A stretch of DNA of 64,000 nt from an uncultured Acidobacteriota bacterium (GTDB taxonomy: Bacteria > Acidobacteriota > Thermoanaerobaculia > UBA5066 > Gp7-AA6): positions 320,999-384,998 of the forward strand of contig CAVXRK010000011.1 of NCBI GenBank assembly GCA_963764025.1, written 5' to 3'. Position numbers and translations under genes: made by a program. Positions 1-59,400 of the stretch are shown here, one piece after another. The first letter of the stretch is position 1. Every line of letters starts with the position of its first letter. The notes below the pieces were generated by a model. It was not told the origin of the DNA. It did not search any database and saw only the letters and a list, made by a program, of their open reading frames with translations.

Positions 1-1107
1 GCGGCCGGAAGCGGCCCGGGCCTGGAAGTACTCGTGCACGGCGACGAGGTACCAGAGCGATGCGTCGACGGAGTTGAATTCGGGCTGAACTTTTCCGTCG
101 GGAAAGAGGTTCGGCAGCATGCCCTCCGAGACCGCGCCCGCCCACTGGACGAGGATCTGCCCCGCCTCGTCGAGGCGGCCCGTCGCGAGGCACAGGCCGC
201 GGAGGGCGATGAAGGTGTCGCGTCCCCAGTCGGTGAACCACGGGTAGCCCGCGACGACGGTCCGGCCCTCTCCTCGCCGCACGAGGTAAGCGTCGGCCGA
301 GCGCTCCAGCCGGCCGGGAAAAGCCGCTCGGCGCGTGCGCTCGGAGCTTCGGAACGTCTCGACGGCAGCCTCCGCGGAGCCGGTGCCGAGGGCCGCCTCG
401 TGCCCCTCCGCCGCCATGAGCCAGATCGCGTCGCCCCGAGCGAGGTCGAACGTCAGGGTGCCGGGCGACGCAAGGTCCTCGGAAAAGTCGAGGCCGCGGG
501 CGCGCTCTTCCGCGTAGAGGAAGTTGCGGTACCAGTCCGGAGAGTGCGCGTAAACGCCGTTCGAGAGCATCGTGATGGCGGGCTGGTTGGCGTAGGGACG
601 CAAGCGCAGGCGGCCTTCCTCCGCCGAGGCCGAATCGGCATCGAAGCGAAAGCCCGGGTTCTCGTGGTGAAGCGAGTGATAGTCGCGCCCCGAGAGGAAG
701 GGCCGGACCTCGAGCGTCACGACGCCCGTCCCGGACAGCAGCTTCCACGCGACAGCCGCAGCGGAGGAACCCTTCAGGACCAGGATCTCCTGAGCGATAC
801 GCGTGCCGTCCGGAAGGCGGAACGTCCAGCGCGGCCAGGGCTCGAGCTCGAAGCGGTCGGCGCGGGAGGCGCCGTCGGGGTAGGTGACGTCGGGGCCGTA
901 GGCCTGCGAGGTGATCGCGTAGCGGCCCGAGGACGTCGTGACCCAGGCGTCGAACCCGTTGACGAGGACGACGCGGCCCGTCGGCGGCGTCGTCGCCGTC
1001 AGGAGGAGCGCGTGATAGCGGCGGGTCCGGATGCCGGCGACCGTGCCGGAGGCGAAACCGCCGAGGCCGTCCGCTTCGAGCCACTCCCGGGTCAGGGCGT
1101 CGCTCAT
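1..1107 (-). CDS. glycogen debranching enzyme (amylo-alpha-1,6-glucosidase family), N-terminal part; C-terminus lies off the window
   Basis: Minus-frame translation starting at the ATG at 1107 reads MSDALTREWLEADGLGGFASGTVAGIRTRRYHALL...VLVNGFDAW, typical of the bacterial/archaeal GDE N-terminal domain. The plus-strand 34..1401 ORF is its antisense. Confidence 0.7.
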   Translation of the reverse strand, partial: MSDALTREWLEADGLGGFASGTVAGIRTRRYHALLLTATTPPTGRVVLVNGFDAWVTTSSGRYAITSQAYGPDVTYPDGASRADRFELEPWPRWTFRLPDGTRIAQEILVLKGSSAAAVAWKLLSGTGVVTLEVRPFLSGRDYHSLHHENPGFRFDADSASAEEGRLRLRPYANQPAITMLSNGVYAHSPDWYRNFLYAEERARGLDFSEDLASPGTLTFDLARGDAIWLMAAEGHEAALGTGSAEAAVETFRSSERTRRAAFPGRLERSADAYLVRRGEGRTVVAGYPWFTDWGRDTFIALRGLCLATGRLDEAGQILVQWAGAVSEGMLPNLFPDGKVQPEFNSVDASLWYLVAVHEYFQARAASGR

Positions 1108-1126
1108 CGCCACAGGCTATCCCGTC

Positions 1127-1336: not shown

Positions 1337-1387
1337 CGATCACCCCCTTGCCCTCCATTCGATGCCGCTCCCACCCCCCCGTTTCCT

Positions 1388-1540
1388 GGGGTCAGCCCTG
1401 AAAGAATGAAAGATTGCCGCGAACCGAATCTCCGACGGCTCAGTTCGACGAGGAAAACCGGCCTCGATGGGGGTAGGACTCTCGAGCGAGTTTCAATCTT
1501 TCAGGACTGGCCCCAAGTGTCAGACTTTCAGGGCTGACCC
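1388..1540. repeat. REP doublet (REPIN-like): GGGGTCAGCCCTGAAAGAATGA on the left, two inverted copies on the right, with an internal GAAAGATTG/CAATCTTTC hairpin
   Basis: The same about 22-nt GGGGTCAGCCCTG(A/C)AAG(T/A)(C/A)TGA element recurs at 11412-11460 and, inverted, at 12451-12500, flanking a RAYT gene. Confidence 0.75.
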
Positions 1541-2550
1541 TACTCGACGAGCTGGAGGAGGTGGCCGTCGGGGTCGGCGGCGAGGAGGGCGCGGGAGAAG
1601 CCGAGGACCGGGGACGGGAGGGTGACGAGGCCGGGCGAGAGGAAGCCGGCGCGAGCGGCGAAGAGGGCCTTTTCGGCGGCGGCGGCGTCGCGGACCCGAA
1701 GCTCCGTCTGCCAGGCGACGAGGTCGTTCGAGCGGACGTCCGGCGGACGCGGGCGTCCGTCCGACGGGGCGAGGTACTCCAGGAACTCGATCCCCGGCCC
1801 CTGCGCCGCCCGCAGCGCCGTGATCCGCAGGCGCGCGCCGAAGACGTTGTTGAGGTGCTCCTGCTCGGTGCCGTAGTTTTCGGCGCCGCCGGCGACCTTC
1901 ATCCCCAGCGCATCCCGGTAGAGCGCGAGGCTCCTCTCCGTGTCGGACACGACGATCGCCGTGTGATCGATTCCGAGAAAGAGGCGCCCCTTCTCCTGCC
2001 ACCGCGGTTCGCCTTTCCCCGGCGGAAACGCCAGGATCTCGAGGGCGTGGCCGTCGGGATCCTTGAAGTAGAACGCCTCGATCCCGCCGGCGTTCGGATT
2101 CCAGTCCGGAAGCCTCTGCGGGCCGCTCGAGGCGTGCCGCACGCGGTGCTCGCGCAGCCGCGCGTAGGCCTTCGCCATGTCGGAGACGATGATCGCGACG
2201 TGCTGGAACCAGCGGTCGTTCGAGCGCGAGTCGACCGGGACGGGACGGCCCTCCGGGGCGAGGTACCCGACGAGCTCGATCCGCTCCGACCCGAGCCGCA
2301 GCGTCGCCGACCGGACTCGCAGCCCGAAGACGCCCTCCAGGCGTTCCCACGCCTCTCCGGCGAGCTCGACCTCGCCGACCTTTTCGAAGCCCAGCACCTC
2401 CGAGTAGAACGCGACGGACCGGTCGAGATCGGAGACCGGGATCGTCACCGAATCGACGGCCGTCACGAGCGGCTGGCCGAGGGCCGCGGCCGCCGCCGTC
2501 CCGACGACGAGGATCGCGACGGCAAGGGCCCGGGTAAGCGGCCGCCTCAC
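1540..2550 (-). CDS. secreted VOC (glyoxalase/bleomycin-resistance/dioxygenase) family protein with two tandem VOC domains
   Basis: GTG start at 2550. N-terminal signal peptide RRPLTRALAVAILVVGTAAAAALG. Two VOC-like halves (VTIPVSDLDRSVAFYSEVLGF... and LGIDHTAIVVSDTERSLALYRDALGM...). Overlaps the GMC gene by GTGA. A REP follows the stop. Confidence 0.7.
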   Translation of the reverse strand: MRRPLTRALAVAILVVGTAAAAALGQPLVTAVDSVTIPVSDLDRSVAFYSEVLGFEKVGEVELAGEAWERLEGVFGLRVRSATLRLGSERIELVGYLAPEGRPVPVDSRSNDRWFQHVAIIVSDMAKAYARLREHRVRHASSGPQRLPDWNPNAGGIEAFYFKDPDGHALEILAFPPGKGEPRWQEKGRLFLGIDHTAIVVSDTERSLALYRDALGMKVAGGAENYGTEQEHLNNVFGARLRITALRAAQGPGIEFLEYLAPSDGRPRPPDVRSNDLVAWQTELRVRDAAAAEKALFAARAGFLSPGLVTLPSPVLGFSRALLAADPDGHLLQLVE

Positions 2551-4115
2551 GCCAGGCGTTCCTTGAGGTGCTCGCCGACCCGCAGCGCGTTCGCGATGAT
2601 GGTCAGCGCCGGATTTACGGCCGCCGAGGATGGGAAGAAGCTGCCGTCGACCACGTAGAGGTTGTCGAGGTCGTGCGCCTTGCAGTTCGAATCGAGCGCC
2701 GAGGCTTTCGGGTCGCGGCCGAACCGGGCCGTTCCGTTCTGGTGCGCCACCCCCGCGAGCGGGATCTTCTCGCCGAGAAAAAGGCTCCGTCCGAAAAGGC
2801 CGACGTGGCACGAGTCCCCGTGCATCGAGCACTTGCGCTGCTTCTGCATTGCCTTCTGCAGGGTCGCGCGGAGGCGCTCGTGCGCGGTCACGTTGTTGGG
2901 CTGGTACTTGAGAACGATGTTCCCGTCGCGGTCGAGCGTCACGCGATTCTCGGGGTCCGGCAGGTCCTCCGAGGTCAGCCAGAAGTCGAGCGAGTGCTTC
3001 GCCATCATCTCGAGCGTGAATCCCGGCGCGATCGCCGGCGCGCCCGCCGAGAGCGCGATGCCATCGAGCTTGCCGACGAAGGAGATGTGGCCCATCGGGT
3101 AGCCCCACTCCTTCGACGCAAAGTAGTAGTCGTTGACGCCGAGCGTCTTCTGGAAGACGGTCGGATTCGGGCAGCGCGAGATCGCGAGCAGGACCGAGTT
3201 GACGTGCCCCATGTAGTGCCGGCCGACGACGTCGCTCGAGTTCGCGAGGCCGTTCGGGTGCCTGTCGTTCGCCGACCGAAGGAGCAGCGCCGCCGAGTTG
3301 ATCGCGCCGCAGGAGACGACCACGACGTCGGCCGTGTATTCCTCGGGCACGCCTTCGCGCTCGACCGAGACTTTCGTCACACGGCGGCCCCCGGCATCGG
3401 TGTGGAGGCGCGTGACCTTCGCGCCGGTCTGCAGCGTCACGTTCGGGTGCGCCAGCGCCGGGTCCACGCAGCAGACCTGGGCGTCCGCTTTGGCCTGCAC
3501 CAGGCACGGGAACCCGTCGCACGACTCGCAACGGATGCACCTGGAAGCGCGGCGGTCCTTCTCGTTCAGCATGATGCCGAGGGGCACGTGGAAGGGGCGC
3601 AGGCCCTGCTGCTCGAAGTCGTCCGAGAGGTCCTGGATGCGGGGCTCGTGCGAGACGGCGGGGTGCGGGAAGGGGGTCGAGGCCGGCGGCTCCGTCGGGT
3701 CTTCGCCCCGGGTGCCGTGGACGCGGTAGAGCTCCTCGGCTTTCGCGTACCAGGGCTCCATCTCCGCATAGGAGATCGGCCACGCCGGCGAAACTCCCCC
3801 GTGGTGCCGGATCTCGCCGAAGTCCTCCTGGCGCAGGCGAAAGAGGGCGGCGCCGTAGAACTTGGTGTTCCCCCCCACCCAGTAGTTGGTGTGGGGATGG
3901 AGGTCCTTGCCGTGCTTGTCGCGCCAGACTTCCTTCGTGGCGTATTTGCCGTCGACGTTGACGGCCTTCGAGCTCCAGTTGTCCTTCTCGCGGGGAACGA
4001 AGTCGCCGCGCTCGAGCACCAGGATCCTCTTGCCCGTCGGCGCGAGCGACCAGAGCAGCGTCCCGCCCCCGGCGCCCGTGCCAATGATGATCACGTCGTA
4101 GTGGTTCGCGGACAT
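2547..4115 (-). CDS. GMC family FAD-dependent oxidoreductase
   Basis: MSANHYDVIIIGTGAGGG Rossmann motif with an AGGGGA SD upstream. C-terminal GMC_oxred_C-like HDLDNLYVVDGSFFPSSAAVNPALTIIA. Confidence 0.85.
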   Translation of the reverse strand: MSANHYDVIIIGTGAGGGTLLWSLAPTGKRILVLERGDFVPREKDNWSSKAVNVDGKYATKEVWRDKHGKDLHPHTNYWVGGNTKFYGAALFRLRQEDFGEIRHHGGVSPAWPISYAEMEPWYAKAEELYRVHGTRGEDPTEPPASTPFPHPAVSHEPRIQDLSDDFEQQGLRPFHVPLGIMLNEKDRRASRCIRCESCDGFPCLVQAKADAQVCCVDPALAHPNVTLQTGAKVTRLHTDAGGRRVTKVSVEREGVPEEYTADVVVVSCGAINSAALLLRSANDRHPNGLANSSDVVGRHYMGHVNSVLLAISRCPNPTVFQKTLGVNDYYFASKEWGYPMGHISFVGKLDGIALSAGAPAIAPGFTLEMMAKHSLDFWLTSEDLPDPENRVTLDRDGNIVLKYQPNNVTAHERLRATLQKAMQKQRKCSMHGDSCHVGLFGRSLFLGEKIPLAGVAHQNGTARFGRDPKASALDSNCKAHDLDNLYVVDGSFFPSSAAVNPALTIIANALRVGEHLKERLA

Positions 4116-8010: not shown

Positions 8011-10415
8011 CCGCGAAGGGAGACCGCCTCGAGGCCCTCCGCGCCTACGGCGTTCTCGACACCGGCCCCGAGGGGGCGTTCGACGACCTGGCCGACCTCG
8101 CGTCCCGGATCTGCCAGGCCCCGATGGCGCTGATCAGCCTCGTCGACCGGGACCGCCAGTGGTTCAAGGCCAGGGTCGGTCTCGACATTTCCGAAACCCC
8201 CCGCGAGATCGCCTTCTGCGCCCACGCGATCCTGGGTTCCGAACTGATGGTCGTCCCGGACGCCCGCGCCGACGCGCGGTTCGCCGACAACCCGCTCGTG
8301 ACCGGCGACCCCGGGATCCGGTTCTACGCCGGCGCGCCCCTCATGACCGACAAGGGCCAGGCCCTCGGAACGCTCTGCGTGCTCGACCGGGTTCCCCGCG
8401 CCCTCACCCACGACCAGACCGCGGCCCTCGCCACCCTCTCGCGCGAGGTGGTCGCCCGGCTCGACCTGCGTAGGGCCAACGCCGAGCTCGAACGGGTCGT
8501 CGCGGGAGAGCGCGCCGCATCCGAGGCGCTGCGGTCGAGCGAGGAATTCAAGACGCGGATGATCGAGTGCAGCCGCGACTGCATCAAGGTCCTCGACCTC
8601 GAAGGCCGGCTGCTCTCGATGAACGCCGGCGGAATGGAGGCCCTCGAGATCTGCGACATCGGCCAGTACCTGGGCGCGTCGTGGATCGACTTCTGGAAGG
8701 GCCCGGACCGCGACTCGGCGCGGGCGGCGGTGGAAGCCGCACGCAACGGCGGCATGGGTCACTTCGTCGGCTACTTCGAGACCGTTCAGACGCGGCAGCC
8801 TCGCTGGTTCGACGTCGTCGTCAACCCGATCCTCGGCTCGGAGGGCCGGCCCGAGAGCCTCCTCGCCGTCTCGCGCGACGTCACCGAGCGCAAGCGCTCG
8901 GAGGACCTTTTCCGGCGGCTGACGGAGGCCACCGCCGCGACGACGGGCGCCGGATTCTTCAAGACGCTCGTGGAGACCCTGGCCACGGCGCTCCGCGTCC
9001 GGTACGCGTTCGTCACGGAGTGCGGTCCGGGCGACCCGACGGCGCGGATGCTCGCGTTCTGGAAAAACGAGTCGATCGCGGAGAACCTCGAGTACGGCCT
9101 GGCCGGCACGCCCTGCGAGGCCGTCATCCGGGGCGAGGTGCGGTTCTACGCGGACCGGCTGGCCGAGCGCTTTCCCGAGGACACGGGCCTCGTCGACTGG
9201 CGGGCCGAGAGCTTCCTCGGCATCCCGATGGTCGGTCACGACGGCGTCGTCATCGGCCATCTCGCGGTTCTCGACGACCGGCCGATGAGCGAGGCGTCGA
9301 TCGAAATCTCAGTCCTGCGGATCTTCGCCGACCGCGCCGCGGCCGAGCTCGAGCGGCTGCGGGCGCAGACCGAGCTCGAGCGCCTCAAGGATCGTCTGCA
9401 GGCCGAGAACGTGTACCTGCAGGAAGAGATCCGCACGCAGCACAACTTCGAGGAGATCATCGGAAACGCGCCTCCCCTGCTCGACGCCCTTTCGAAGGTG
9501 GAGCGTGTCGCGCAGACGGATTCGACCGTGCTGATCGCGGGCGAGACCGGCTCGGGCAAGGAGCTCTTCGCGCGCGCCATCCACAGCCGGAGCGCCCGGC
9601 GCCAGCGGCCCCTCGTCAAGGTCAACTGCGGAGCGATCCCGGCCGGCCTCGTCGAAAGCGAGCTCTTCGGGCACGTCAAGGGCGCTTACACGGGAGCCCT
9701 CGACAGGCGCACCGGCCGGTTCGAGCTCGCCGACGGCGGCACGATCTTCCTCGACGAAATCGGCGAGCTTCCGCCGGAGACGCAGGTCAAGCTGCTGCGC
9801 GTGCTGCAGGAACGGGAGTTCGAGCCCGTGGGTTCGTCGCGCACGATCAAGGTCGACGTGCGGATCATCGCGGCGACCAATCGCGACCTCGAGGAGGAGG
9901 TCCGGCGCGGGCGCTTCCGCGCCGACCTGCTCTACCGGCTGAACGTGTTTCCGATCGCCGTCCCCTCGCTGCGGGAGCGGCGGGGAGACATCCCGCTGCT
10001 CGTCGCCTTCTTCCTGACCGGCCTCGCCAAGCGGCTCGGCAAGCCGCTCGAAGGTTTCACGCGTTCGTCCATGAACGAGCTCTGCGCGTACTCCTGGCCC
10101 GGCAACATCCGGGAACTGCAGAACGTCGTGGAGCGAGCGGCGATCCTCGCGCCCGGGCCGACGCTCGAGGTGGAGCGGGGCCTGCTGCGGGGCGATCCGG
10201 CGGCGGCGACATCGGCGTCCGCATGGACGGCCCCGTCCGGCGGCGGCGCGAAGCTCGTCGAGATCGAGAAGTCCCACATCCGCGAAGTCCTCCGCTCGAC
10301 CCGGGGCGTGATCGAAGGTCCGGCCGGCGCCGCCCGACGCCTCGGCCTTCATCCCAACACGCTTCGGAGCCGCCTCAAGAAGTACGGCATCGAGCCCCGC
10401 CACGAAGCATCGTAG
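8011..10415 (+). CDS. sigma54-dependent transcriptional activator with a GAF-PAS-GAF sensor, AAA+ sigma54-interaction domain and Fis-type HTH
   Basis: GAF: [51 protein letters not shown]: [29 protein letters not shown]+: [22 protein letters not shown]-terminal HTH: [23 protein letters not shown]. No ATG/GTG/TTG upstream in frame. Confidence 0.8.
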
Positions 10416-10552
10416 CGACCACGAAATTTCGTGGCGCAGGGGCCGCGGCGCGAACCCCGCCAAAATGTATAAGCGACTGAATCCAAACGACTTCGGTCTG
10501 CCACTCGGCCGCCGAAAACCTGGCTCCGCCGTTGCTCTTGCAGGGGTCAGCC

Positions 10553-10795
10553 ATGTTGAGAATCAGCAAAGCCAACGAATGCCTGGTGGTCGAGGGACGG
10601 GTGGCCGGACCCTACGTCGACGAGCTCGCACGGGCGCTCGGGGACGCCGCGGGGATGAAGGCCATCGACGTCTCCGGCGTGGGGTACGTCGACGCGGCGG
10701 GCGCCAGGCTCCTGCAGCGGCTGGTGAAGCAGGGAATCGCGATCCGCGGAAGCTCCGCGTTCGTCGCCGAGACCCTGAAAGGAGCGTCGTCGTGA
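10553..10795 (+). CDS. STAS-domain protein (anti-sigma-factor antagonist-like)
   Basis: MLRISKANECLVVEGRVAGPYVDELARALGDAAGMKAIDVSGVGYVDAAGARLLQRLV. Its stop overlaps the GTG of the downstream ECF sigma (GTGA). Confidence 0.65.
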   Translation: MLRISKANECLVVEGRVAGPYVDELARALGDAAGMKAIDVSGVGYVDAAGARLLQRLVKQGIAIRGSSAFVAETLKGASS

Positions 10796-11433
10796 ACGTC
10801 GAGCTCTCACGCCGGATTCCGGATGCCGAGCCCGCGCCCGGGGCCGCGCCGGCCCTCCCCGGAGAGGCCGGGCTCCTCGAGCGGCTGCGCCGCGGCGACG
10901 AGGAGGCCTGCGAGATGCTCGTGCGCGCGCACAGCGGCCGGCTCCTGTCGGTCGCGCGGCGTTACCTGCGGTGCGAGGAAGACGCGCGCGACGCCGTCCA
11001 GGAAGGGTTCGTCGCGGCGTTCCGGGCGATCGGACGCTTCGAGGGCGGCTCGAGCCTCTCGACCTGGCTGCATCGCATCGTCATCAACGCGTGCCTGATG
11101 AAGCTGCGCTCGAGCCGGCGCCGCCCGGAGACATCGATCGAGGAACTGCTCCCGAAGTTCGACGAGTCCGGCCATCGCGTCGCGGAGCCCGAGGAATGGC
11201 GCGAATCCGCCGAGACCGCGCTCGACCGCAGTCAGACGCGGCGACGCGTCCGCGAGGCGATCGCGCAGCTTCCCGAGCACTACCGCTCCGTCCTGTTGCT
11301 CCGCGACATCGAGGAGCTCTCGACCGCCGAGGCCGCGCGCCTTCTCAACCTCACCGAGAACGCGGTCAAGATCCGCCTCCACCGCGCCCGCCAGGCCCTC
11401 CGCACCCTCCTGGGGTCAGCCCTGCAAGTCTGA
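10792..11433 (+). CDS. ECF sigma factor (sigma-70 group IV)
   Basis: GTG start. Region 2: LLERLRRGDEEACEMLVRAHSGRLLSVARRYLRCEEDARDAVQEGFVAAFRAIGRFEGGSSLSTWLHRIVINACL. Region 4: HYRSVLLLRDIEELSTAEAARLLNLTENAVKIRLHRARQAL. The last residues GSALQV and the stop are encoded by a REP element. Confidence 0.85.
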   Translation: MNVELSRRIPDAEPAPGAAPALPGEAGLLERLRRGDEEACEMLVRAHSGRLLSVARRYLRCEEDARDAVQEGFVAAFRAIGRFEGGSSLSTWLHRIVINACLMKLRSSRRRPETSIEELLPKFDESGHRVAEPEEWRESAETALDRSQTRRRVREAIAQLPEHYRSVLLLRDIEELSTAEAARLLNLTENAVKIRLHRARQALRTLLGSALQV

Positions 11434-11460
11434 AACTTGGGGTCAGCCCTGAAAGAATGA
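11412..11460. repeat. REP doublet (two direct copies of GGGGTCAGCCCTG(C/A)AAG...TGA) on the left flank of the RAYT
   Basis: Direct sequence match to the elements at 1388-1409 and, inverted, at 12451-12500. Confidence 0.8.
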
Positions 11461-11512
11461 CACTTCGGGGGCGGCTCGCGACAATCTAAAGACAGGGGCG
11501 GAGGCTGGAGCG

Positions 11513-12496
11513 ATGTCGCGTGCGCCGCGGATCGAAATCGCCGGAGGCGTCTACCACGTGATCGCGCGCGGGAACGAACGGCGCGACATCTTTCGAGACG
11601 ACTCCGACCGGCATCTCTACCTGGCGCGCCTCGCGGAATGCCGTGACCGATACCGATTCGGAGTCCTCGCCTACTGCCTCATGCCGAATCACGTCCACCT
11701 CGCCGTCGAACGAGGCCCGGTTCCCCTTTCAAAGATCATGCTCGCGCTCCACTCCTACTACAGCCAGAAATTCAATTTTCGACATGAGCGTGTCGGGCAC
11801 CTGTTCCAGGGCCGATACAAGGCTTTTCTGGTCGAACTCGACCGATACCTCGCTGCGCTCGTTCGCTACATCCACCTGAACCCGGTCAAGGCCGGCGTCG
11901 CCGATCGACCCGAGAGCTATCCGTGGTCGAGCGACCGGTGGTATCGCGAAGGTGGCGGTCCAAGCTGGCTCGACGTCGACTTCGTCCTCGCGCGTCTTGC
12001 GCCCAGCCGGTCCAGGGCCTGCGCCGCTTACCGGCGGTGGATGGGGTCCGGTGAACCGGACGACTACGACCGCGCGCGCCCGATCGGCCGCGTCGTGAAG
12101 GGCGACGAGAAGTTCGCCAAACGCTCGATGCGCGAGGCCCGCGTCACTCTTCCCAGAAGAAGTGGTTGGACGCCGTCGAGGTTCGCCGCCGCCGCGAGCG
12201 CGTTTCAGGGATTCTCACTCGGCCGGCTGAAGGGACCGTCCCAAGCCCGAGCGGAGTCACGGGCTCGGCTGATCACGGTCTTCGTCGCGAGGCGCGATCA
12301 TTCGATTCCAGCGTCGGCGCTGGCCAGGTGCTTCGACCGCGACGAATCCGCGTTCGCGCACGGCCTCCGAAGGCTCGAACGTGCGATCGCACGAAATCCA
12401 GAGCTCGCAAGGCACGTCGAGCGCGTGGCCGCCGCGCTGGGCCCCGAAGCGTCAGACTTACAGGTCAGGCCCCAGATTTCAGACTTTCAGGGCTGA
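11513..12496 (+). mobile_element. REP-associated tyrosine transposase (RAYT; IS200/IS605 Y1 HUH family) with a C-terminal extension
   Basis: RIEIAGGVYHVIARGNERRDIF...VLAYCLMPNHVHLAVE (HuH motif)...HLFQGRYKAFLV (catalytic Tyr region). Flanked by inverted REP doublets. The ORF reads through into the right REP (…SDFQG*). Confidence 0.8.
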
Positions 12497-12500
12497 CCCC
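12451..12500. repeat. REP doublet in inverted orientation on the right flank of the RAYT
   Basis: TCAGACTTTCAGGGCTGACCCC is the reverse complement of GGGGTCAGCCCTGAAAGTCTGA, preceded by the variant GTCAGACTTACAGGTCAGGCCCC. Confidence 0.8.
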
Positions 12501-13946
12501 AGGTCGAGGAGGGAGTTGAAGGAGCCGTGGGGGTCGGCCTCGCGCAGCGAATGGGAGGGGTCGGGGAGCCAGCGGGCCCCGTCGACGACGAGCTTGTAGC
12601 GGTGGCGGCCGGGCGGCGGGGCGGGGAGAGCCGGCGCGCCACACGCCGTCCGCCTGCCGCGCCATCGGAAGGCGCGACGCGTCCCAGCCGTTGAAGTCGC
12701 CGGCCACGGCGACCGACGTGGCGTCGTCGTCGTGGAAGGTGAAAACGAGGCGGCCGTCCTCGACGCGGGGCGGCCCACCGACTCGGCCGGCGCCGGCGTG
12801 CGCCTCCCGCCGCGCGACCGCCACCGCCGCGGCGGGGTCCACGACGCCATGCCCCTGGCGCAGCGCCGCGATGCCCGGGACCGGGCTCGCGCTCGCGAGC
12901 AGGATCCGGCGGACTTCCGCCGGCGTGAGCGCCGGATTGGCCTCGAGCATCTGCGCGACGACCGACGCGACGACCGGCGCCGCGAACGAGGTCCCGTCCA
13001 CGTGCTGATAGTGCGCAGCCACGATCTTCTCGGCGCGAAGCCGCTCTTCGACCCAGCTCCGCAGTGCCGCCGCCTGACGCGGGAGCTCCGGGATTCCCCC
13101 ACGGACCTCGTCCGCGAGACGCGCCAGGCGGTAATCCGGCGCCGATGCCAGCCGTGTCAGCGTCTGCGCGCGCCGCCAGGCCGGCGTGCCCGGCAGGATC
13201 GGCGCCGCGACCCACATCGCCGGAGCGATCAATTCCGGCTTGACGAGACCGTCGGCCGTCACGCCGAAGCTCGAGCAGTACGCCGCGAGGTGCCGCCGCT
13301 CGGGATCGTTTGCGTCGTCATATCCGCCGACGGCGATGACCGAGGGCGCCGTGGCTGGAGGCAATACGCGGGGCGCGGGTCCGCACCCGGAATTTCCCGC
13401 GGCGGCCACGAGCACCATGCCGCGGGCGACGGCCGCCTCGGCGAGCTGGTTGATCCGGCTCTCCGCGAGCGTCCGGTCCGCGTCGCCGCCGAGCGACATG
13501 CTGACGATCCGTATCGCGTGCCGTTCGTGGTTCGCGAGCACCCACTCGAGTCCGCGCTCGATCGCGTCGTCGGTGATTCGCCCGTCCCGCCCCACCCGCA
13601 CCAGCACGAGCGCCGCCTCGGGCGCGAGCCCGCGGTAGACGCCGTCGGAAAGCAACCCGCTGCCGGCGGCCGCGACGCACGTCTGCGTGCCGTGCCAGCA
13701 GTCCGGGGCCGGTATCTCCGCGTTCTCCAGCATGCCCTGCGGATCGTGGACGTCGTGATACGCCCGGATCCGCTCGCCCGGCTCGGTGATGTCGGGATGG
13801 GGATGGAAGCCTGAGTCCAGGAAGGCGACCGTCACCCCGCGGCCGCGGAGCGTCCCGTCGTCGCCGAAGCGCTCCGGGGTCGAGACCACGGCGAACCGAT
13901 TGGGCGCGTGGCCGTGGCCCGCGTGCAGCTCTCCCCCGTCGCTCAT
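12479..13946 (-). CDS. cytoplasmic S8 subtilisin-like serine peptidase with a C-terminal CBM48/E-set (glycogen-binding-like) domain; one frameshift near 12650
   Basis: Catalytic triad in context: VAFLDSGF (Asp), HGTQTC (His), GTSFAAPVVAS (Ser). No signal peptide. C-terminus reads RLVFTFHDDDATSVAVAGDFNGWDASRLPMARQADGVWR, then continues in the adjacent frame as ALPAPPPGRHRYKLVVDGARWLPDP (shift in a GG run). The stop is supplied by a REP. Confidence 0.75.
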
Positions 13947-14006
13947 CCACGGATGAGATGCCGCCGGGGGCCGCCGGTTACGCGTCGGCGGTGAAAATCG
14001 CCGCGC

Positions 14007-14858
14007 TCAGCGAGAGGCTGGCAGGACGACGCCCTGGAAGAGTCCCTCGGCCACCCAGTCGCGCAGCCACCGGAAGAGCTGGTCGCCCGCGGAGCCCTGG
14101 AGCCCACGCGCCGCCGTTGCGACGGCCTTGCCGAACGGCCGGCCCTTGACCAGTGCAGCGAGGAAGTCGTGGGCCGGCTTCGAGAGGTCGAGGCGCCAGA
14201 CTTCGTAGTTCTTCCGATAGACGGCGATCCAGGTGGGGCGCCGTCCGGTCGGCGGATGATCGTGATCGTCGTCCTTGACCGACTGCAGGTAGGCGTTGAC
14301 GGGATACGCGAACGCCGCGACCCGCAGGGCCGCCGACGGACGGAGCACGACCCCGGGCCAGGCCGCCTCCGGGACGCGCGCGATCTCTTCGGCCGGCCAG
14401 GCGGGCGACTCGGGCGCGTCGAAGACCTCGGTGACGAGGCTTTCGAGGCGGGCGAGGTCGGCGACGAAGGCCTTCCGGCGGATGCCCTGCGAGCCCCGGA
14501 TGAATTCGGGAAGGCGGTCGCCCAGGCGGTTCAGGGTGTAGCTCCGGGAGGGGTGCGCCGCGACATAGCGCGTCACGAGGTCCGCGAAGTCCTCGGCTCC
14601 GAGCAGGTGCGCCACGGCCGGAAAGTCGTTCTCGAGCGCCTCGACCATGCGGAGCAGATACATGCCCTGGTAGACGCCGACCCGTTCGACCGGCGTCAGC
14701 GTCTTCGACGGCCGGATCACCCGCGCGATCTCGTCCGGCTCGAGCTCGGCGCGCGCAGCGGGCGATGTCACGGCCTCCTCGGCCGTGCCCGGCTGCTCGA
14801 TGACCGCCTGCATCCAGCGCTGGAGGCGCGGGAGCGGCAGCTCAAGAGGCCGCGGCAA
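14007..14858 (-). CDS. DUF2063-family protein (BufC/MbnC-like partner of a DUF692 MNIO enzyme)
   Basis: 283 aa, immediately downstream of and overlapping the DUF692 gene. Paralogous to the 18072..18932 gene (shared LPFL...LARLE, YVAAHP/YLGVFP regions). Confidence 0.7.
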   Translation of the reverse strand: MPRPLELPLPRLQRWMQAVIEQPGTAEEAVTSPAARAELEPDEIARVIRPSKTLTPVERVGVYQGMYLLRMVEALENDFPAVAHLLGAEDFADLVTRYVAAHPSRSYTLNRLGDRLPEFIRGSQGIRRKAFVADLARLESLVTEVFDAPESPAWPAEEIARVPEAAWPGVVLRPSAALRVAAFAYPVNAYLQSVKDDDHDHPPTGRRPTWIAVYRKNYEVWRLDLSKPAHDFLAALVKGRPFGKAVATAARGLQGSAGDQLFRWLRDWVAEGLFQGVVLPASR

Positions 14859-15771
14859 TCGCCTTCTCCTCGTTCCGGAACCGCCGCGCCTTGAGGGCCT
14901 CCGCGTGGACCTCCTCGAACGACGGGATCTCGCCGTCCCACTCGAAGAGCGTCGCGACGTTGCCCGTCCGCGCGACCGCGTGGCGATAGAGCTCCCAGAC
15001 CTCGGGAATCGCCCGGTCGCTGTGCGTGTCGAGGATGTGCGTGCCCTTGTTCGTGTGGCCGGCGAGGTGGTACTGCGCCACGCGCGACGGATCGATCGCG
15101 TCGAGGTAGAGCTTCGGGTCGAATCCGTGGTTGAACGCGCTGACGTAGACGTTGTTGACGTCGAGGAGCATGCCGCAGTCGGCCTTCTCCATGAGCCGGC
15201 CGAAAAACTCCCACTCCGGCATGCTCGAGGCGGAAAACTCCGCGTAGGTCGACGCGTTCTCGAGGATCAGGGGCCGCTCCAGAACGTCGGAGACGATTCT
15301 CACGCGCTCGGCGACGTGGGAAAGCGCCTCCTCGGTGAGCGGCATCGGGAGCAGGTCGTGCGTGTTTCGTCCGGAAACGCCGGTCCAGCACAGGTGGTCC
15401 GACACCCAGAGGGCGCGGGTGCGGGCGGCGAGGGCTTTCAGTTTCGCGAGGTATCCGTGGTCGAGCGGATCGGTCGAGCCGATCGACATCGACACGCCGT
15501 GGAGCACGACCGGATAGCGCTCGGCCACCTGGTCGAGGACCCAGGCGGGCCGGCCGCCGGTGTCGAGGTAGTTCTCGGAGAGGACCTCGAAGAAGTCGAT
15601 CTCGGGCTTCTTCTCGAGGATGTGGGGATAGTGGACCGTGCGGAGACCGATGCCGACGCCGAGGTCGGGAAAGTTCCAGCGGTTTCGGGTGAGCGGCTTC
15701 ACGTGAGACTCGATCTTACGATTGGAAAGTGAACCGGGGGGCGCGGCCTCGGCCGCGACCCCCCGCTTCAC
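14842..15771 (-). CDS. DUF692 multinuclear non-heme iron oxidative enzyme (MNIO; MbnB/BufB-like)
   Basis: LGVGIGLRTVHYPHILE...VLHGVSMSIGSTDPLDHGYLAKLKAL...[11 protein letters not shown]...LILENASTYAEF...GMLLDVNNVYVSAFNHGFDP...YHLAGH..LDTHSDRAIPEVWELY...TLFEWDGEIPSFEE. An alternative GTG start lies about 15705. Confidence 0.85.
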   Translation of the reverse strand: MKRGVAAEAAPPGSLSNRKIESHVKPLTRNRWNFPDLGVGIGLRTVHYPHILEKKPEIDFFEVLSENYLDTGGRPAWVLDQVAERYPVVLHGVSMSIGSTDPLDHGYLAKLKALAARTRALWVSDHLCWTGVSGRNTHDLLPMPLTEEALSHVAERVRIVSDVLERPLILENASTYAEFSASSMPEWEFFGRLMEKADCGMLLDVNNVYVSAFNHGFDPKLYLDAIDPSRVAQYHLAGHTNKGTHILDTHSDRAIPEVWELYRHAVARTGNVATLFEWDGEIPSFEEVHAEALKARRFRNEEKAIAAAS

Positions 15772-15781
15772 GACGGTGAAG

Positions 15782-16204
15782 TCAGGCCGCCTTCTTCGGA
15801 GCCACCGGGACCGCGCAGCCGCCCTTGCCCTTGCAGGAGTTCTTGCCGGCGCAGCCGTTCTCGCCGCTCTTGCAGCCGCCCTGGCCCTTGCAGGAGTTCA
15901 TGCCCTTGCAGGAGTGCTTCATGTCGGCCGAAGCGCAGCCGCCCTTGCCCTTGCAGGAGTTCTTGCCGGAACAGCCGTTGTCGCCGGCCTTGCAGCCGCC
16001 CTTCCCCTTGCACGAGTTCATGCCCTTGCAGACGTGCTTGTCGGAGGTCGCGGCCGCCTTGTCCTTGGCGCCCTTCGCCCGCCTGCCGCTCTTGCCGCCG
16101 GACTTCGCTTCGTTCTTCGGCAGAGCCGAGAGCAGCTGGGAGCCCGCGAGAACGCCGGCCACCGCGAGACCGATCGCCTTCACCTTCAGATCGCCCTTCT
16201 TCAT
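15782..16204 (-). CDS. Sec-signal Cys-rich RiPP precursor, bufferin BufA2-like (BUF_6/12Cys type); 12 Cys in two tandem 33-aa repeats
   Basis: AAGGAG SD 7 nt before the ATG. MKKGDLKVKAIGLAVAGVLAGSQLLSALP signal peptide. Core: HVCKGMNSCKGKGGCKAGDNGCSGKNSCKGKGGCA, then a second copy HSCKGMNSCKGQGGCKSGENGCAGKNSCKGKGGCA. Lies directly upstream of the MNIO and DUF2063 genes. Confidence 0.8.
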   Translation of the reverse strand: MKKGDLKVKAIGLAVAGVLAGSQLLSALPKNEAKSGGKSGRRAKGAKDKAAATSDKHVCKGMNSCKGKGGCKAGDNGCSGKNSCKGKGGCASADMKHSCKGMNSCKGQGGCKSGENGCAGKNSCKGKGGCAVPVAPKKAA

Positions 16205-16277
16205 CCCTGTCTCCTTTCGTCTCCCCGTCTCGGGGTCGCGAATCACCGCTGCAGCCGACATGGCTGCCGCGACTTAC

Positions 16278-18932: not shown

Positions 18933-19780
18933 GAAACGCCTCCTCCGAATTTCGCTGAATCTCTTCGGCGCGCCGCGCCTCGGCGAGCACCGTCGCGAGC
19001 GGCGGGATTGCCGCGTCCCACTCGATGAGGGTCGGCACGGGGCCAAACCGGGCCACGGCGGACCGATAGAGGCCCCAGACCGCGTCGGCGACGGGATGGT
19101 CGTGGGTGTCGATGACGAGGTCGCCGTGGTCTTCGTGGCCGGCCAGATGCATCTGCCCGACCCGATGCGCCGGCAGCCGCCTGAGGAAACGCCGCGCGTC
19201 GAGGCCGTGGTTGCGGGCGTTGACGTAGAGGTTGTTGACGTCGAGCAGGATCCCGCAGTCGGCTTCGTCCGCGACCGCCGCGAGGAAGTCCGCCTCCGAG
19301 AGGCGGGACGCCGCGTGCTCGACGTAGCTCGAGATGTTCTCGACGAGGATGCGGCGGCCCGAGGAACTCCTGGACGCTCGCGGATCTTCCGCGCCGCGCG
19401 ACACACGGCCTCTTCGGTGAGCAGCAGCGGGAGCAGGTCGTGGCTGTTGTGGCCGCCGAGGCCGGTCCAGCAGAGGTGGTCCGAGACGATGACCGGAGCA
19501 CGCGGTCACAGAGGGCCTTGAGGCGACGCAGGTATCCGCCATCGACGGGCTCGGCCGAACCGAGCGACATCGAGACGCCGTGGAGCGCGACCGGGTAGTC
19601 CCGGCGCACTCGGTCGAGCATCGCGAGCGGGCGGCCCCCGTCGACCATGAAGTTCTCCGAGATCGCTTCGAAGAACGGAACCGCAGGCCGCTCGGCGAGG
19701 ATTTCGTCGAAGTGCTCCTTGCGCAGACCGATCCCGCATCCCGCGAAGCCGCGCGGGCGAAAGCCGCGCCCGCGTTTCAC
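18913..19780 (-). pseudogene. DUF692 MNIO (second copy), broken by about 3 frameshifts (GGG runs and others)
   Basis: Frame 1: [28 protein letters not shown]...[28 protein letters not shown]. Frame 3: [30 protein letters not shown]. Frame 2: [12 protein letters not shown]...[18 protein letters not shown]...MHLAGH...[16 protein letters not shown]...[11 protein letters not shown]. Confidence 0.65.
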
Positions 19781-29587: not shown

Positions 29588-29962
29588 GCCTTGCCCGTCG
29601 CCCGAGCGCCAATCGACTTGCCCGTCGCCCGAGCGCCAATCGACTTGCCCGTCGCCCGAGCGTCGATCGACTTGGCACCCGCACGAGCGTCAATCGACTT
29701 GGCCCGTCGCCCGAGCGCCAATCGACTTGCCCGTCGCCCGAGCGCCAATCGACTTGCCCGTCGCCCGAGCGCCAATCGACTTGCCCGTCGCCCGAGCGCC
29801 AATCGACTTGCCCGTCGCCCGAGCGCCGATCGACTTGGCCCGTCGCCCGAGCGCCGATCGACTTGCCCGTCGCCCGAGCGCCAATCGACTTGCCCGTCGC
29901 CCGAGCGCCGATCGACTTGCCCGTCGCCCGAGCGCCAATCGACTTGCCCGTCGCCCGAGCCG
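29588..29962. repeat. 27-nt tandem direct repeat array, about 14 copies, unit CGACTTGCCCGTCGCCCGAGCGCCAAT, with a few 28-nt and variant units, inside a coding sequence
   Basis: Direct inspection. Units differ by A/G at one position. Two units are 28 nt (TTGGCCCG versus TTGCCCG). Confidence 0.95.
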
Positions 29963-56431: not shown

Positions 56432-59400
56432 ATGGAGGTCACGCGTCGAGGGTTCCTGAAGGCCACCGGTCTCGGAACCACCATCGCCCTCGGGTTCGAC
56501 GTCTCCACGGCGCGGGCCGAAATGCGGGAGCTCAAGGTCTCCCGCACCACCGAGACGCGAAGTACCTGCCCCTACTGCGCCGTCTCCTGCGGGATGATCA
56601 TTCATACGCTCGGAGACAAGGCCAAGAACGCGACGCCCGCCGTCGTGTACGTCGAGGGAGACCCGGACCATCCCATCAATCGAGGCACCCTCTGCCCCAA
56701 GGGGGCGACCGTCAAGGACGACATCAACAGCAAGACCCGCCTGATGAAGCCGCAGGTCCGGCGGCCGGGCTCGGACAAGTGGGAGGACATCTCCTGGGAC
56801 GAGGCGATCGCCAAGATCGCCCGCCACATCAAGGACACCCGCGACAAGAACTTCGTCGGCAAGAACGCCAAGGGTCAGGTCGTGAACCGCAATCCGGGCA
56901 TGGCCATGATCGGCGGCTGCACGGATACGACCGAATTCAACTACCTCTACTGGAAGTCCGCGTCGGCCTGGGGGGTGCCGTACCGCGATACCCAGGCCCG
57001 GGTTTGACACGGCCCCACGGTGGCCAGTCTGGCCGCCACGTTCGGTCGGGGGGCGATGACGAATGGATGGGTCGACATCAAGAATGCCGACGTCGTCCTG
57101 TGCATGGGCGGCAACCCCGCCGAGAACCATCCCTGCGGATTCAAGTGGGCCATCGAGGCCAAGAAGACCCGTAACGCAAAGCTCGTCGCGGTCGATCCGC
57201 GCTTCACACGGACGGCGGCCGTCGCGGACCTCTACTCCCCGATCCGCACGGGAACCGACATCGCCTACCTTCTCGGCATCATCCGCTACGCGATCGCGAA
57301 CAACCGGTACCACGAGGAGTACGTCAAGACTCTTCACGAACGCGCCGCTGTCTGATCAATCCACGAGTTCAAGTTCGACGAGGGGCTCTTCTCCGGTTTC
57401 GACGAGGCGGCCGGCAGCTACAAGCGCGACACCTGGGCCTACCAGCTCGACCCGAAGACGGGATTCGCGAAGACGGACCCGACGCTCCAGGACCCGCAAC
57501 TGCGTCTTCCAGCTGCTTAAGAAGCACGTCGACCGGTACACGCCGGAGATGGTCGAGAAGATCTGCGGGACACCCGAAGGAGACGTTCCTGAAGGTGGCC
57601 GAGGTCGTGACGTCGACCGGCAACGCCGCGCGATGCGGCACGATCATGTACGCGCTCGGCTGGACGCAGCACTCGATCGGCGTGCAGATGATCCGGACGG
57701 CCGCGATGCTGCAGCTCCTGCTCGGCAACGTCGGGCGGCCCGGCGGCGGCGTCAACGCGCTCCGCGGCCACTCCAACATCCAGGGGGCGACCGACACCGC
57801 CGGCGTCTTCGACATTCTCCCCGGCTACCTCAAGACGCCGCAGGCCCAGTGGCAGACCCTCAAGGAGTACGGAAGCGACGCCAACGTGCCCCAAGCCCCT
57901 CGGCCCCTCCATGAACTACTGGCAGAACTACCCGAAGTTCATGGCCTCGGTCCTCAAGGCCTGCTACGGCAAGGCGGCCACGAAGGAGAACGAGTTCGGC
58001 TACGGGTGGCTGCCCAAGATCGACGGGAACTACTCCTGGATGTACATCTTCGACGACATGTACCGCGGCAACTCGACTCGCGCCGGCGGGCAGGAGCCGG
58101 GCCCCGAGGGCCTCATGACGTTCGGGATGAACCCGGTCGGGATCGGCCCGAATTCGCCGAAGATGGTCGCCGCGCATGCAAAGCTGAAGTGGCTCGTCGT
58201 CGTCGAGAATCACGAGGTCGAGACCGCGACCTTCTGGCGGGCTCCGAAGGAGTACGGCGCGCCGGATCCCTCGAAGATCCAGACCGAGGTCTTCCAGCTT
58301 CCCGCATCCAATTTCGCCGAGAAGGACGGGTCCTTCACCAACTCCGCGCGCTGGATCCAGTGGAAGTGGAAGGCCGTCGATCCCCCGGGACAGGTCAAGA
58401 CCGACCAGGAGATCCTGGCGCGCATCTTCCTCGCGGTGCGCGAGCTCTACCGGAAGGAGGGCGGCGCGTTCCCGAGGCCGTGCTCAACGTGGACTGGAGC
58501 TACACGAACCCGGCGGCGCCGGACCTGCCGAAATCCTGAAGGAGCTCAACGGCAGGGCCCTCGCCGACATCCCGGACCCGAAGGACAAGACGAAGGTCTC
58601 AAGACCGCCGGGCAGCAGCTCGACGGCTTCGGCCAGCTCCAGGACGACGGCTCGACGATGTGCGGCAACTGGCTGATGTCGGGCGTCTACACGGAAGCCG
58701 GGCAACATGGCGCAGCGCCGCGTACTCGACCGACGACCCGAGCGGCCTCGGCATGTTCCACAACTGGACCTTCTCCTGGCCGGCCAATCGCCGCGTGATG
58801 TACAACCGCGCGTCGGCCGACGCCGAAGGCAAGCCCTGGGACCCGACACGCGTCGGGATCAAAGTGGAACGGCCGAAGTGGGTCGGCGACGTCCCCGACA
58901 TGAAGCCGGATGCGCCCCCGGGGACGTTCGGGGCTTTCATCATGCTGCCCGAGGGCTCGGCCGCCTGTATCGCGCCGGCCTGAACGACGGCCCCTTCCCG
59001 GAACACTACGAGGCGGTCGAAGCGCCGGTCGCAAAACCTCCTTCATCCGAAGGTCACGTCCAACCCGGCTCCAAGAAATTCAAGTCGGACAAGGACGTCT
59101 ACGGAAACGCCGCGGACTTCCCGATCGTCTGCACGACCTACCGGCTGACCGAGATGTACCACTACTGGACGAAGCACATCAATCGCCTCAACCAGCTGCA
59201 GCCCGGGTTCTTCATCGAGATTCCGGAGGCGCTCGCCAAGGAGAAGGGCATCGTCAACGGAGGCAAGGCGCGGGTCACCTCCGCGCGCGGCTCGATCGAA
59301 GGGGTCGCCATGGTCACCAAGCGCATGCGCCCCCTCCAGATCGACGGCAAGCAGCACTGGCAGATCGGCTTCCCCCTCCACTGGGGCTACGAGGCAACGG

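Follow-up and report, generated by a model that had tools for sequence, protein, structure and literature searches.

A probable TIRtron whose terminal repeats supply the stop codons of both neighbouring genes in an uncultured Acidobacteriota bacterium

Introduction

RAYT-like genes (after the REP-associated tyrosine transposases; REP, repetitive extragenic palindrome) that are flanked by terminal inverted repeats are known as TIRYTs, and gene and repeats together as a TIRtron (Di Nocera, De Gregorio and Rocco 2013, PMC3733652). The passages of that paper that deal with TIRtrons give GGGGWSAS as the consensus of the repeats, report that some repeats overlap the 3' end of the RAYT-like gene, call the repeat families "moderately abundant", with copies in dimers and clusters, and single out a group in the Acidobacteria. 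TIRYTs have been equated with the TnpA_REP-like subclass 2.1, which the corresponding sections of Quentin et al. (2018, PMC6006769) describe as long proteins with a C-terminal Bac_DnaA_C/helix-turn-helix (HTH) domain and without REPs nearby. Here we describe a locus of this kind in a stretch of 64,000 nt from an uncultured Acidobacteriota bacterium (contig CAVXRK010000011.1, positions 320,999 to 384,998 of the forward strand; hereafter the window), in which an HUH/Y1 transposase gene lies between an extracytoplasmic function (ECF) sigma factor gene and an S8 peptidase gene that converge on it. We read the element, with a probability of about 0.8, as a TIRtron, that is, a RAYT-like HUH/Y1 transposase gene of the TIRYT type, apparently single-copy and vertically inherited, whose repeats cap both neighbours. 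The element type and repeat-supplied stop codons are both already in the literature, and this is no new kind of system.

The locus shares with the TIRtrons, as those sections portray them, a RAYT-like Y1 domain with HUH and Tyr motifs, a long protein with a DnaA_C-type HTH at its C-terminus, inverted repeats beginning GGGGWSAS, a repeat that overlaps the 3' end of the Y1 gene, and modest repeat families in dimers or clusters; paralogues with different repeats can also share a genome, as does P0024, a second Y1 paralogue in a relative of the window. It differs from the TIRtrons described there in its host, a Thermoanaerobaculia-like lineage known only from metagenome-assembled genomes, in its arms, which are tandem doublets, and in its site, apparently a former overlap of convergent genes where both arms now form coding sequence and stop of the neighbours. 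Arms with this double role were not found in the TIRtron descriptions of PMC3733652 and PMC6006769, as far as the sections named extend.

Results

The repeat arms and the genes that end in them

The locus consists of the following features (here and below, C-terminal tails are written up to the last residue before the stop codon).

10792 to 11433, plus strand: ECF sigma-70 gene, 213 aa, identical to P0121; it ends ...RTLLGSALQV, the repeat-encoded GSALQV standing in place of the native tail.
11409 to 11470, plus strand: left terminal inverted repeat arm, with tandem units at 11411-11437 and 11438-11464, both beginning (T)GGGGTCAGCCCTG; the outer unit encodes GSALQV and the TGA (11431-11433) of the sigma gene.
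11457 to 11485, plus strand: promoter-like site ATGACA-17-GACAAT, with its -35 in the tail of the inner left unit.
11513 to 12496, plus strand: TIRYT/RAYT-like HUH-Y1 gene, 327 aa, ending ...SDFQG.
12442 to 12503, minus strand: right terminal inverted repeat arm, with units at 12452-12475 (diverged) and 12479-12502; the outer unit holds the stop of the S8 gene on the minus strand (12479-12481) and the TGA of the Y1 gene on the plus strand (12494-12496).
12479 to 13946, minus strand: S8 peptidase gene with a C-terminal CBM48 domain and a 1-nt frameshift near 12650.

When the window was searched for the 22-nt motif GGGGTCAGCCCTGMAAGTCTGA with at most three mismatches, five matches were found (1388+, 1520-, 11412+, 11439+ and 12479-), compared with 0.00 expected from 100 shuffles. 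Two further copies with four mismatches each (1493-1514 and 12452-12473, both on the minus strand) bring the total in the window to seven, four of which bracket the ORF (open reading frame) at 11513-12496; the other three make a 154-bp inverted pair at 1388-1541. The two arms form a 62-nt inverted repeat with 84% complementarity, and each of them consists of two 27-nt units in tandem. All good copies of the repeat begin GGGGTCAG, consistent with the published GGGGWSAS signature.

Read inward, the unit contains TGA in two of its three frames: ...CCC TGA, which encodes (W)GQP, stops at +11 from the first base of the unit, and ...GTC TGA, which encodes GSAL[QK]V, stops at +19. The third inward frame is open (GVSPESLK...). 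On the opposite strand, GGCTGA is the stop of the Y1 gene, and the last 14 residues of the Y1 protein (SDLQVRPQISDFQG) are encoded by the right arm. As assembled, the S8 frame (12465-13946) comprises the catalytic part and the start of the CBM48 domain and ends ...GVSPESLKSGA, and the frame at 12479-13102 holds the remaining half of CBM48 and ends ...LDLGSALKV. Correction of the frameshift gives a product of 488 aa ending GSALKV. Because P0241, from another assembly, is 100% identical to this corrected translation, and because the orthologues at the related loci L109 and L131 are intact (ending GSALKV and GSALNF, respectively), the shift (within 12630-12700) is read as an assembly error or as a strain-level or recent lesion.

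A sequence-only reading of this DNA had proposed that one repeat, with TGA in both orientations, supplies the stop codons and C-termini of three neighbouring genes, with GSALQV of the sigma factor on a forward copy, SDFQG of the transposase on the right copy and GSALKV of the S8 peptidase on the reverse complement. Our analysis agrees with these placements, all three genes stopping in outer units, except that the S8 peptidase does so after the 1-nt correction and not as assembled.

The transposase

The core of the Y1 protein comprises residues 5-140, with the HUH motif in PNHVHLA and the Tyr in RYIHLNPVKAG; in an alignment of residues 3-140 with E. coli TnpA_REP (4er8), both motifs are in register. 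The protein matches Pfam Y1_Tnp (5e-15), fails the model transpos_IS200 (23.7 bits, cut-off 55) and passes NCBIfam REP_Tyr_transpos (88.3 bits, cut-off 80), which upholds the earlier label RAYT-like. In its C-terminal part, residues 226-307 match the HTH of DnaA domain IV (3pvp, E=4e-4). Pfam Bac_DnaA_C is sub-threshold in the window protein (15.5 bits, cut-off 31.5) and also in the orthologues (25-30 bits), and the precomputed annotation PF08299 is present for many Y1 homologues. There is one Y1 gene of this kind in the 64-kb window.

Folding and expression signals

As single strands, neither single units nor doublets formed a hairpin beyond that of shuffled sequences (z of +0.42, +0.22, -0.29 and -0.97), and comparison of the flanking tetranucleotides gave no conserved GT[AG]G foot beside the units. 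Since the units and doublets fold like shuffled sequence and have no such foot, they are not palindromic REPs, and a hairpin-REP interpretation was dropped. Of the earlier description as a RAYT flanked by REP doublets, the RAYT-like gene and the arms of tandem units therefore remain, and the REPs do not. Non-folding inverted repeats beginning GGGGTCAG, together with the C-terminal HTH resembling DnaA domain IV, are the reason for filing the element as a TIRtron and not as a RAYT with REPs: it combines a RAYT-like Y1 core and a C-terminal HTH with GGGGWSAS-type terminal inverted repeats in place of hairpin REPs. The imperfect palindrome with a 5' GT[AG]G foot that strictly defines RAYT/REPIN systems is absent from it, as are the IS200-type TnpA, subterminal hairpins and, within the 64 kb, multiple copies of IS200/IS605 elements.

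No terminator-like site was found in 10400-14000. With unfolded arms and no such site, the proposal that the repeats act as portable terminator modules is unsupported around the Y1 gene; a hairpin is formed by the short inverted pairs described below, and neither the one at 1388-1541 nor the others are followed by a T-run. The site ATGACA-17-GACAAT was the only promoter-like match in 10400-14000 (one found, 0.2 expected). It lies downstream of the sigma gene and is a putative promoter by its match to the consensus, which is not proof of one. Its -10 is the CGCGACAAT motif, which is conserved upstream of all paralogous Y1 genes examined.

Native gene ends in relatives

We compared the tails of the best 120 homologues of the sigma factor and of the best 120 homologues of the S8 peptidase (a hyphen marks the start of the repeat-encoded part). 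Of the 120 sigma homologues, 26 end GSALxx, the last residues being variable, and more distant homologues have unrelated, longer tails such as RTLLAPSFAP...ARA. Among the S8 homologues, 10 of the 120 end NSLLD[LV]-GSALxx and seven end GGFDSV-WGQP or similarly, which is the same unit in its second frame; distant homologues end natively with ...GGFNSVLxV and a few residues.

Two syntenic loci, L118 in a Thermoanaerobaculia genome and L119 in a sample from the Joint Genome Institute (JGI), carry neither the Y1 gene nor the repeat. At these loci the S8 and sigma genes overlap tail to tail by 53 nt, so that an insertion there must truncate both genes. At L133, four extra codons precede the same repeat (LLAPTL-GSALKV), and LLAP corresponds to the native tail (LLAPSF...) of the element-free L118; this junction differs from that of the window by a 12-nt stretch between two CTG triplets. 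At L132, the S8 and Y1 genes are lost and the sigma factor ends LVAPALRS with its own stop. The earlier claim that gene ends had been overwritten is borne out by these comparisons, since relatives without the element have different and longer native C-termini, and the sequences support replacement of the native sigma and S8 ends by the repeats; the refutation that the earlier reading had named, identical C-termini in orthologues without the motif, did not materialise.

A further locus without the Y1 gene, L120 (5440-5470), was at first assumed to be a naive empty site. Its S8 and sigma genes overlap on exactly TCAGCCCTGA (10 nt), which contains a stop codon on both strands; because this overlap is identical to the repeat core, the locus was then treated as ambiguous.

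Conservation of the locus and concerted change of its arms

The closest public sequence is the uncultured Acidobacteriota MFD05442.bin.1.363, in which a stretch (L027 and L109) shows synteny with the window (86-88% nt identity) and both elements of the window, that around the Y1 gene and that at 1388-1541, are at the same sites. At L109 the sigma factor and the intact S8 peptidase both end GSALKV, and the Y1 protein ends SDFQG. More distant relatives keep the order of sigma, Y1 and, on the opposite strand, S8, but have single units: at L121 the tails are GSALKV for sigma and ...DSM-WGLP for S8, and at L131 both are GSALNF. With L133, the sigma-Y1-S8 locus is thus occupied at L109, L121, L131 and L133.

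The tail pairs of sigma and S8 across the two arms are KV/KV, NF/NF and QV/KV; the repeat-encoded tails change together on both arms. The first 13 nt of the unit (GGGGTCAGCCCTG) do not vary, whereas at L121 three synonymous changes are present in the four codons that precede them; the tail-coding stretch evolves as a repeat and not as a protein.

The Y1 gene itself varies in its divergence. Between L131 and the window, sigma is 96% and S8 88% identical, and the Y1 protein only 71%; for L109, S8 is 87% identical and the Y1 gene roughly 93% by eye (nucleotide alignment). Either uneven evolutionary rates or replacement of the Y1 gene may underlie these values. At another locus, L129/L130 (2392-3493), a Y1 gene of 79% identity has the same doublet arms, with the sigma and S8 genes absent. 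Its left flank is homologous to window positions 1040-1110, which adjoin the 1388-1541 element, and its right flank is a TonB receptor gene, which points to movement or rearrangement between repeat sites.

Repeats at other gene ends

The second repeat locus of the window has two features.

1388 to 1541, 154 bp: inverted-pair element without a transposase gene, resembling a miniature inverted-repeat transposable element or REPIN, with units at 1388-1409 (plus), 1493-1514 (minus) and 1520-1541 (minus).
1540 to 2622 (start provisional), minus strand: two-domain VOC/glyoxalase gene, with TAG at 1540-1542.

The sequence-only reading had seen here a REP doublet directly after the VOC stop. The units do lie at the gene end, but as an inverted pair in which one left unit faces two right ones, and the final two bases of the outer right unit also belong to the TAG. 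In the VOC orthologue at L027, TGG takes the place of the TAG in the same frame, and the frame continues into the unit to end WGQP.

Transposase-less inverted pairs were also found at L027, L003, L082, L096 and L125, so that dispersal of the REPIN type and hairpin formation are both observed. The hairpins are long, with z of -4.65 for L082, -4.27 for L096, -7.48 for L027 and -4.71 for window positions 1383-1545 (full range across the short pairs, -4.3 to -7.5), and the pairs tend to abut the stop codon of the upstream gene. They would presumably be mobilised in trans, and could affect the mRNA stability or translation termination of that gene. REPs close to stop codons in E. coli reportedly lower the expression of the upstream gene through ribosome stalling, a result attributed to Liang, Rudd and Deutscher in 2015. 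The likeness would lie in a structured repeat at a stop codon, and the comparison fits the hairpin-forming short elements only.

A first scan of genome contigs with a 16-mer returned at least 117 loci, mostly by chance, and a rescan with the full motif recovered the real elements. The motif does recur, as the earlier reading had supposed: besides the two repeat loci in the window, there are at least three in the related genome, and others in three further assemblies (L003, L096 and L125).

For gene-repeat junctions, we used those confirmed by Pfam or synteny, as the longest inward ORFs were misleading owing to spurious long ORFs in DNA of 69% G+C. All fusions found are in one of the two closed frames or have a stop that touches the unit. 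The stop of sigma is at +19 and that of S8 at +19 or +11; the VOC stop is at -1 in the window and at +11 in L027; a SpoIIE-type phosphatase in L082 stops at +19, and the orthologous gene in L096 still ends on a stop of its own, 22 nt short of the unit; and a Na/H exchanger in L003 stops at -1. At L126, a paralogous element in the related genome with the repeat AGGGGTCAAYCGTGTATTCCTGTATTC, the stops of both neighbours are at -3 and -2. The paralogues L126 and L128 have GGGGTCAA in place of GGGGTCAG, with one position different.

Several of these loci have peculiarities of their own. The Na/H exchanger beside the L003 element (680-1733) occupies two overlapping ORFs, and this break resembles a further frameshift of a long-read assembly. 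At L127, a paralogous TIRtron with the repeat GGGGTCAGCCCTGCAKTCGTGAACTC has its right arm duplicated at a 41-nt period and lies between the two copies of a direct duplication of about 190 nt (2169-2362 and 3507-3698, 99% identity). This duplication includes two stops, that of the ACR_tran gene upstream and that of the EAL gene convergent with it, so that both native gene ends seem to have been kept by duplication rather than replaced. At L128 (1960-2441), six clustered repeat units lie upstream of a paralogous Y1 gene, and a truncated Y1 N-terminal fragment (...NERKSIFRDDEDRVAYLVRVAECSERFRFRVIAYCL) stands immediately before the repeat, as though one copy of the element had inserted into another.

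Other features of the window

A tandem array at 29590-29960 comprises 13.7 copies of a 27-nt unit (CTTGCCCGTCGCCCGAGCGCCAATCGA) with 93% matches and occasional 28-nt spacing; its sequence is unrelated to the transposase repeats despite the equal period. At 57002-57060 (plus strand), Rfam SECIS_3 matches with 68.9 bits, above the gathering score of 63, and therefore a selenoprotein gene is probably located there. At 14007-16261 and about 18977-19487, DUF2063/HvfC-like and MbnB-like genes adjoin a Cys-rich repetitive small ORF (15782-16261, KGKGGCK-type repeats), and a second, diverged copy of part of this HvfC-like/MbnB-like cluster lies 4080 bp away.

Discussion

The following history would account for the locus. 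The element would have inserted where the convergent sigma and S8-CBM48 genes overlapped tail to tail, cutting off both native C-termini. Because the outer unit has TGA in two of its three inward frames, each truncated neighbour would have been closed after three to six repeat-encoded residues, with the transposase ORF ending in the right arm. The fused arrangement would then have been inherited through a clade of Thermoanaerobaculia-like Acidobacteriota, while small deletions shifted the junctions and the two arms evolved in concert. Spacer between gene and unit may have eroded after insertion, with selection keeping only short added tails, which would explain why only two frames are seen. 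We infer this order of events from the present-day loci.

One alternative is that GSAL... is a native C-terminus that matches the repeat by coincidence, and some sigma homologues do end in loosely similar tails (APALRS, GPALR and AGALA). The same 13-22 nt, however, flank the Y1 gene on either side and recur at loci unrelated to it, unrelated proteins (sigma, S8 and the SpoIIE phosphatase) share the tail, element-free orthologues have other tails, and the tails on the two arms change together; the outgroup comparison of sigma and S8 tails refutes this explanation, to which we give hardly any credence. The transposase might instead prefer targets at or next to stop codons, each fused junction being an independent insertion that needs no spacer erosion. 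A stop lies within -3 to +19 of the first base of the unit in seven of about nine independent junctions, T precedes GGGG in 13 of 25 outer units despite the 69% G+C of the genome, in four cases the first bases of the unit overlap or directly adjoin a TAG or TAA, and S8 is fused in two frames, at two points and in two clades. Such a preference nevertheless remains unlikely, as no conserved tetranucleotide flanks the units and throughout the clade the Y1 gene stands in the same orientation at the same place between sigma and S8. Orthologous junctions, moreover, differ only by small deletions or point changes (22 nt between L082 and L096, 12 nt between the window and L133, TGG at L027 against TAG in the window), and these small differences favour erosion of spacer after insertion.

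The position at gene ends could also be that of classical REPs or REPINs acting as terminators or as stabilisers of mRNA 3' ends. The protein passes the NCBI model for REP-associated tyrosine transposases, very stable hairpins of short inverted pairs directly follow stop codons, and the literature, in the parts of PMC3733652 concerned with REPs, places these predominantly downstream of coding regions and has GTAG REPs supplying TAG stops. With RAYT/REPIN systems (PMC3116915, PMC5581495), the locus further shares a Y1 gene with a repeat family of its own on its flanks, a repeat specific to each paralogue, and transposase-less inverted pairs that form hairpins and are dispersed in intergenic DNA; the gene may also, as in those systems, be single-copy and vertically inherited. 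In those systems, however, the repeats number tens to hundreds of copies, whereas here the copy number may be low; the units are non-palindromic and lack the foot, and the Y1 protein carries an additional HTH domain. Single units and the doublets beside the Y1 gene fold no better than shuffles, the absence of terminator-like sites and T-runs noted above leaves the proposed function without its signals, and downstream of sigma there is instead a promoter-like site followed by the Y1 gene. We therefore consider classical REPs improbable here. A recently inserted autonomous element of the IS200/IS605 type is more improbable still. Its HUH/Y1 catalytic core (Y1_Tnp) would be the same, at least one lineage (L129/L130) has the element at another place, through movement or rearrangement, and a truncated Y1 fragment with a unit cluster stands beside the paralogue in L128. 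IS200/IS605 elements, in contrast to this one, spread horizontally, occur in multiple copies and carry subterminal hairpins but no inverted repeats; the protein scores far below the IS200 cut-off, one copy was present in 64 kb, no subterminal hairpins were found, and species at 86-88% nt identity, as well as more distant ones, carry the element at this very site.

Certain observations weigh against the reading as a vertically inherited TIRtron that caps both neighbours. The S8 gene of the window is itself frameshifted. L120 may be a remnant after loss of the element and not a naive site, and given this ambiguity L118 and L119 are the only clearly naive state. Not every copy is fused to a gene: the same element at L129/L130 lies about 42 nt from the stop of the TonB receptor gene, and the L127 paralogue lies 54 nt from the neighbouring stop. 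The repeat family may be small, as the exact 22-mer occurs at four loci in JGI metagenomes, of which one (L125) is clearly an element. Finally, catalysis by the Y1 protein on these repeats is putative.

Repeats that close reading frames have precedents. GTAG REPs, REPs within genes and the Rickettsia RPEs, in the accounts given in parts of PMC3733652, resemble the present units in that repeat termini supply stops and repeat-encoded residues enter proteins; GTAG REPs specifically provide TAG stops to flanking ORFs. In contrast to the GTAG REPs as presented there, the stop here is mostly a TGA located 11 or 19 nt inside a non-palindromic repeat, three to six residues are added, and one element patches two convergent genes at once.

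What our analysis changes is in part a label: the repeats, from a lineage for which metagenome-assembled genomes are the only source, are TIRYT inverted repeats and not REPs. The locus offers a clean natural example of how a mobile-element end with stops on both strands would patch two overlapping convergent genes, the patch being inherited and co-evolving, and this helps when 3' gene ends and pseudogenes are annotated in genomes of this sort. Because repeats supply the stop and last residues of both neighbours and, at other loci, of a phosphatase, a VOC enzyme and a transporter, it is conceivable, if doubtful, that the element has become entrenched, as its clean loss would leave the genes open-ended. 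A more speculative variant is that a sigma factor, a protease and a PP2C phosphatase have in the shared hydrophobic GSAL[KQ]V a common C-terminal tag, for instance one that signals degradation. Entrenchment, if true, would give a simple reason for the long vertical persistence of single-copy RAYT/TIRYT genes, and the locus thereby bears on the persistence of domesticated tyrosine transposases.

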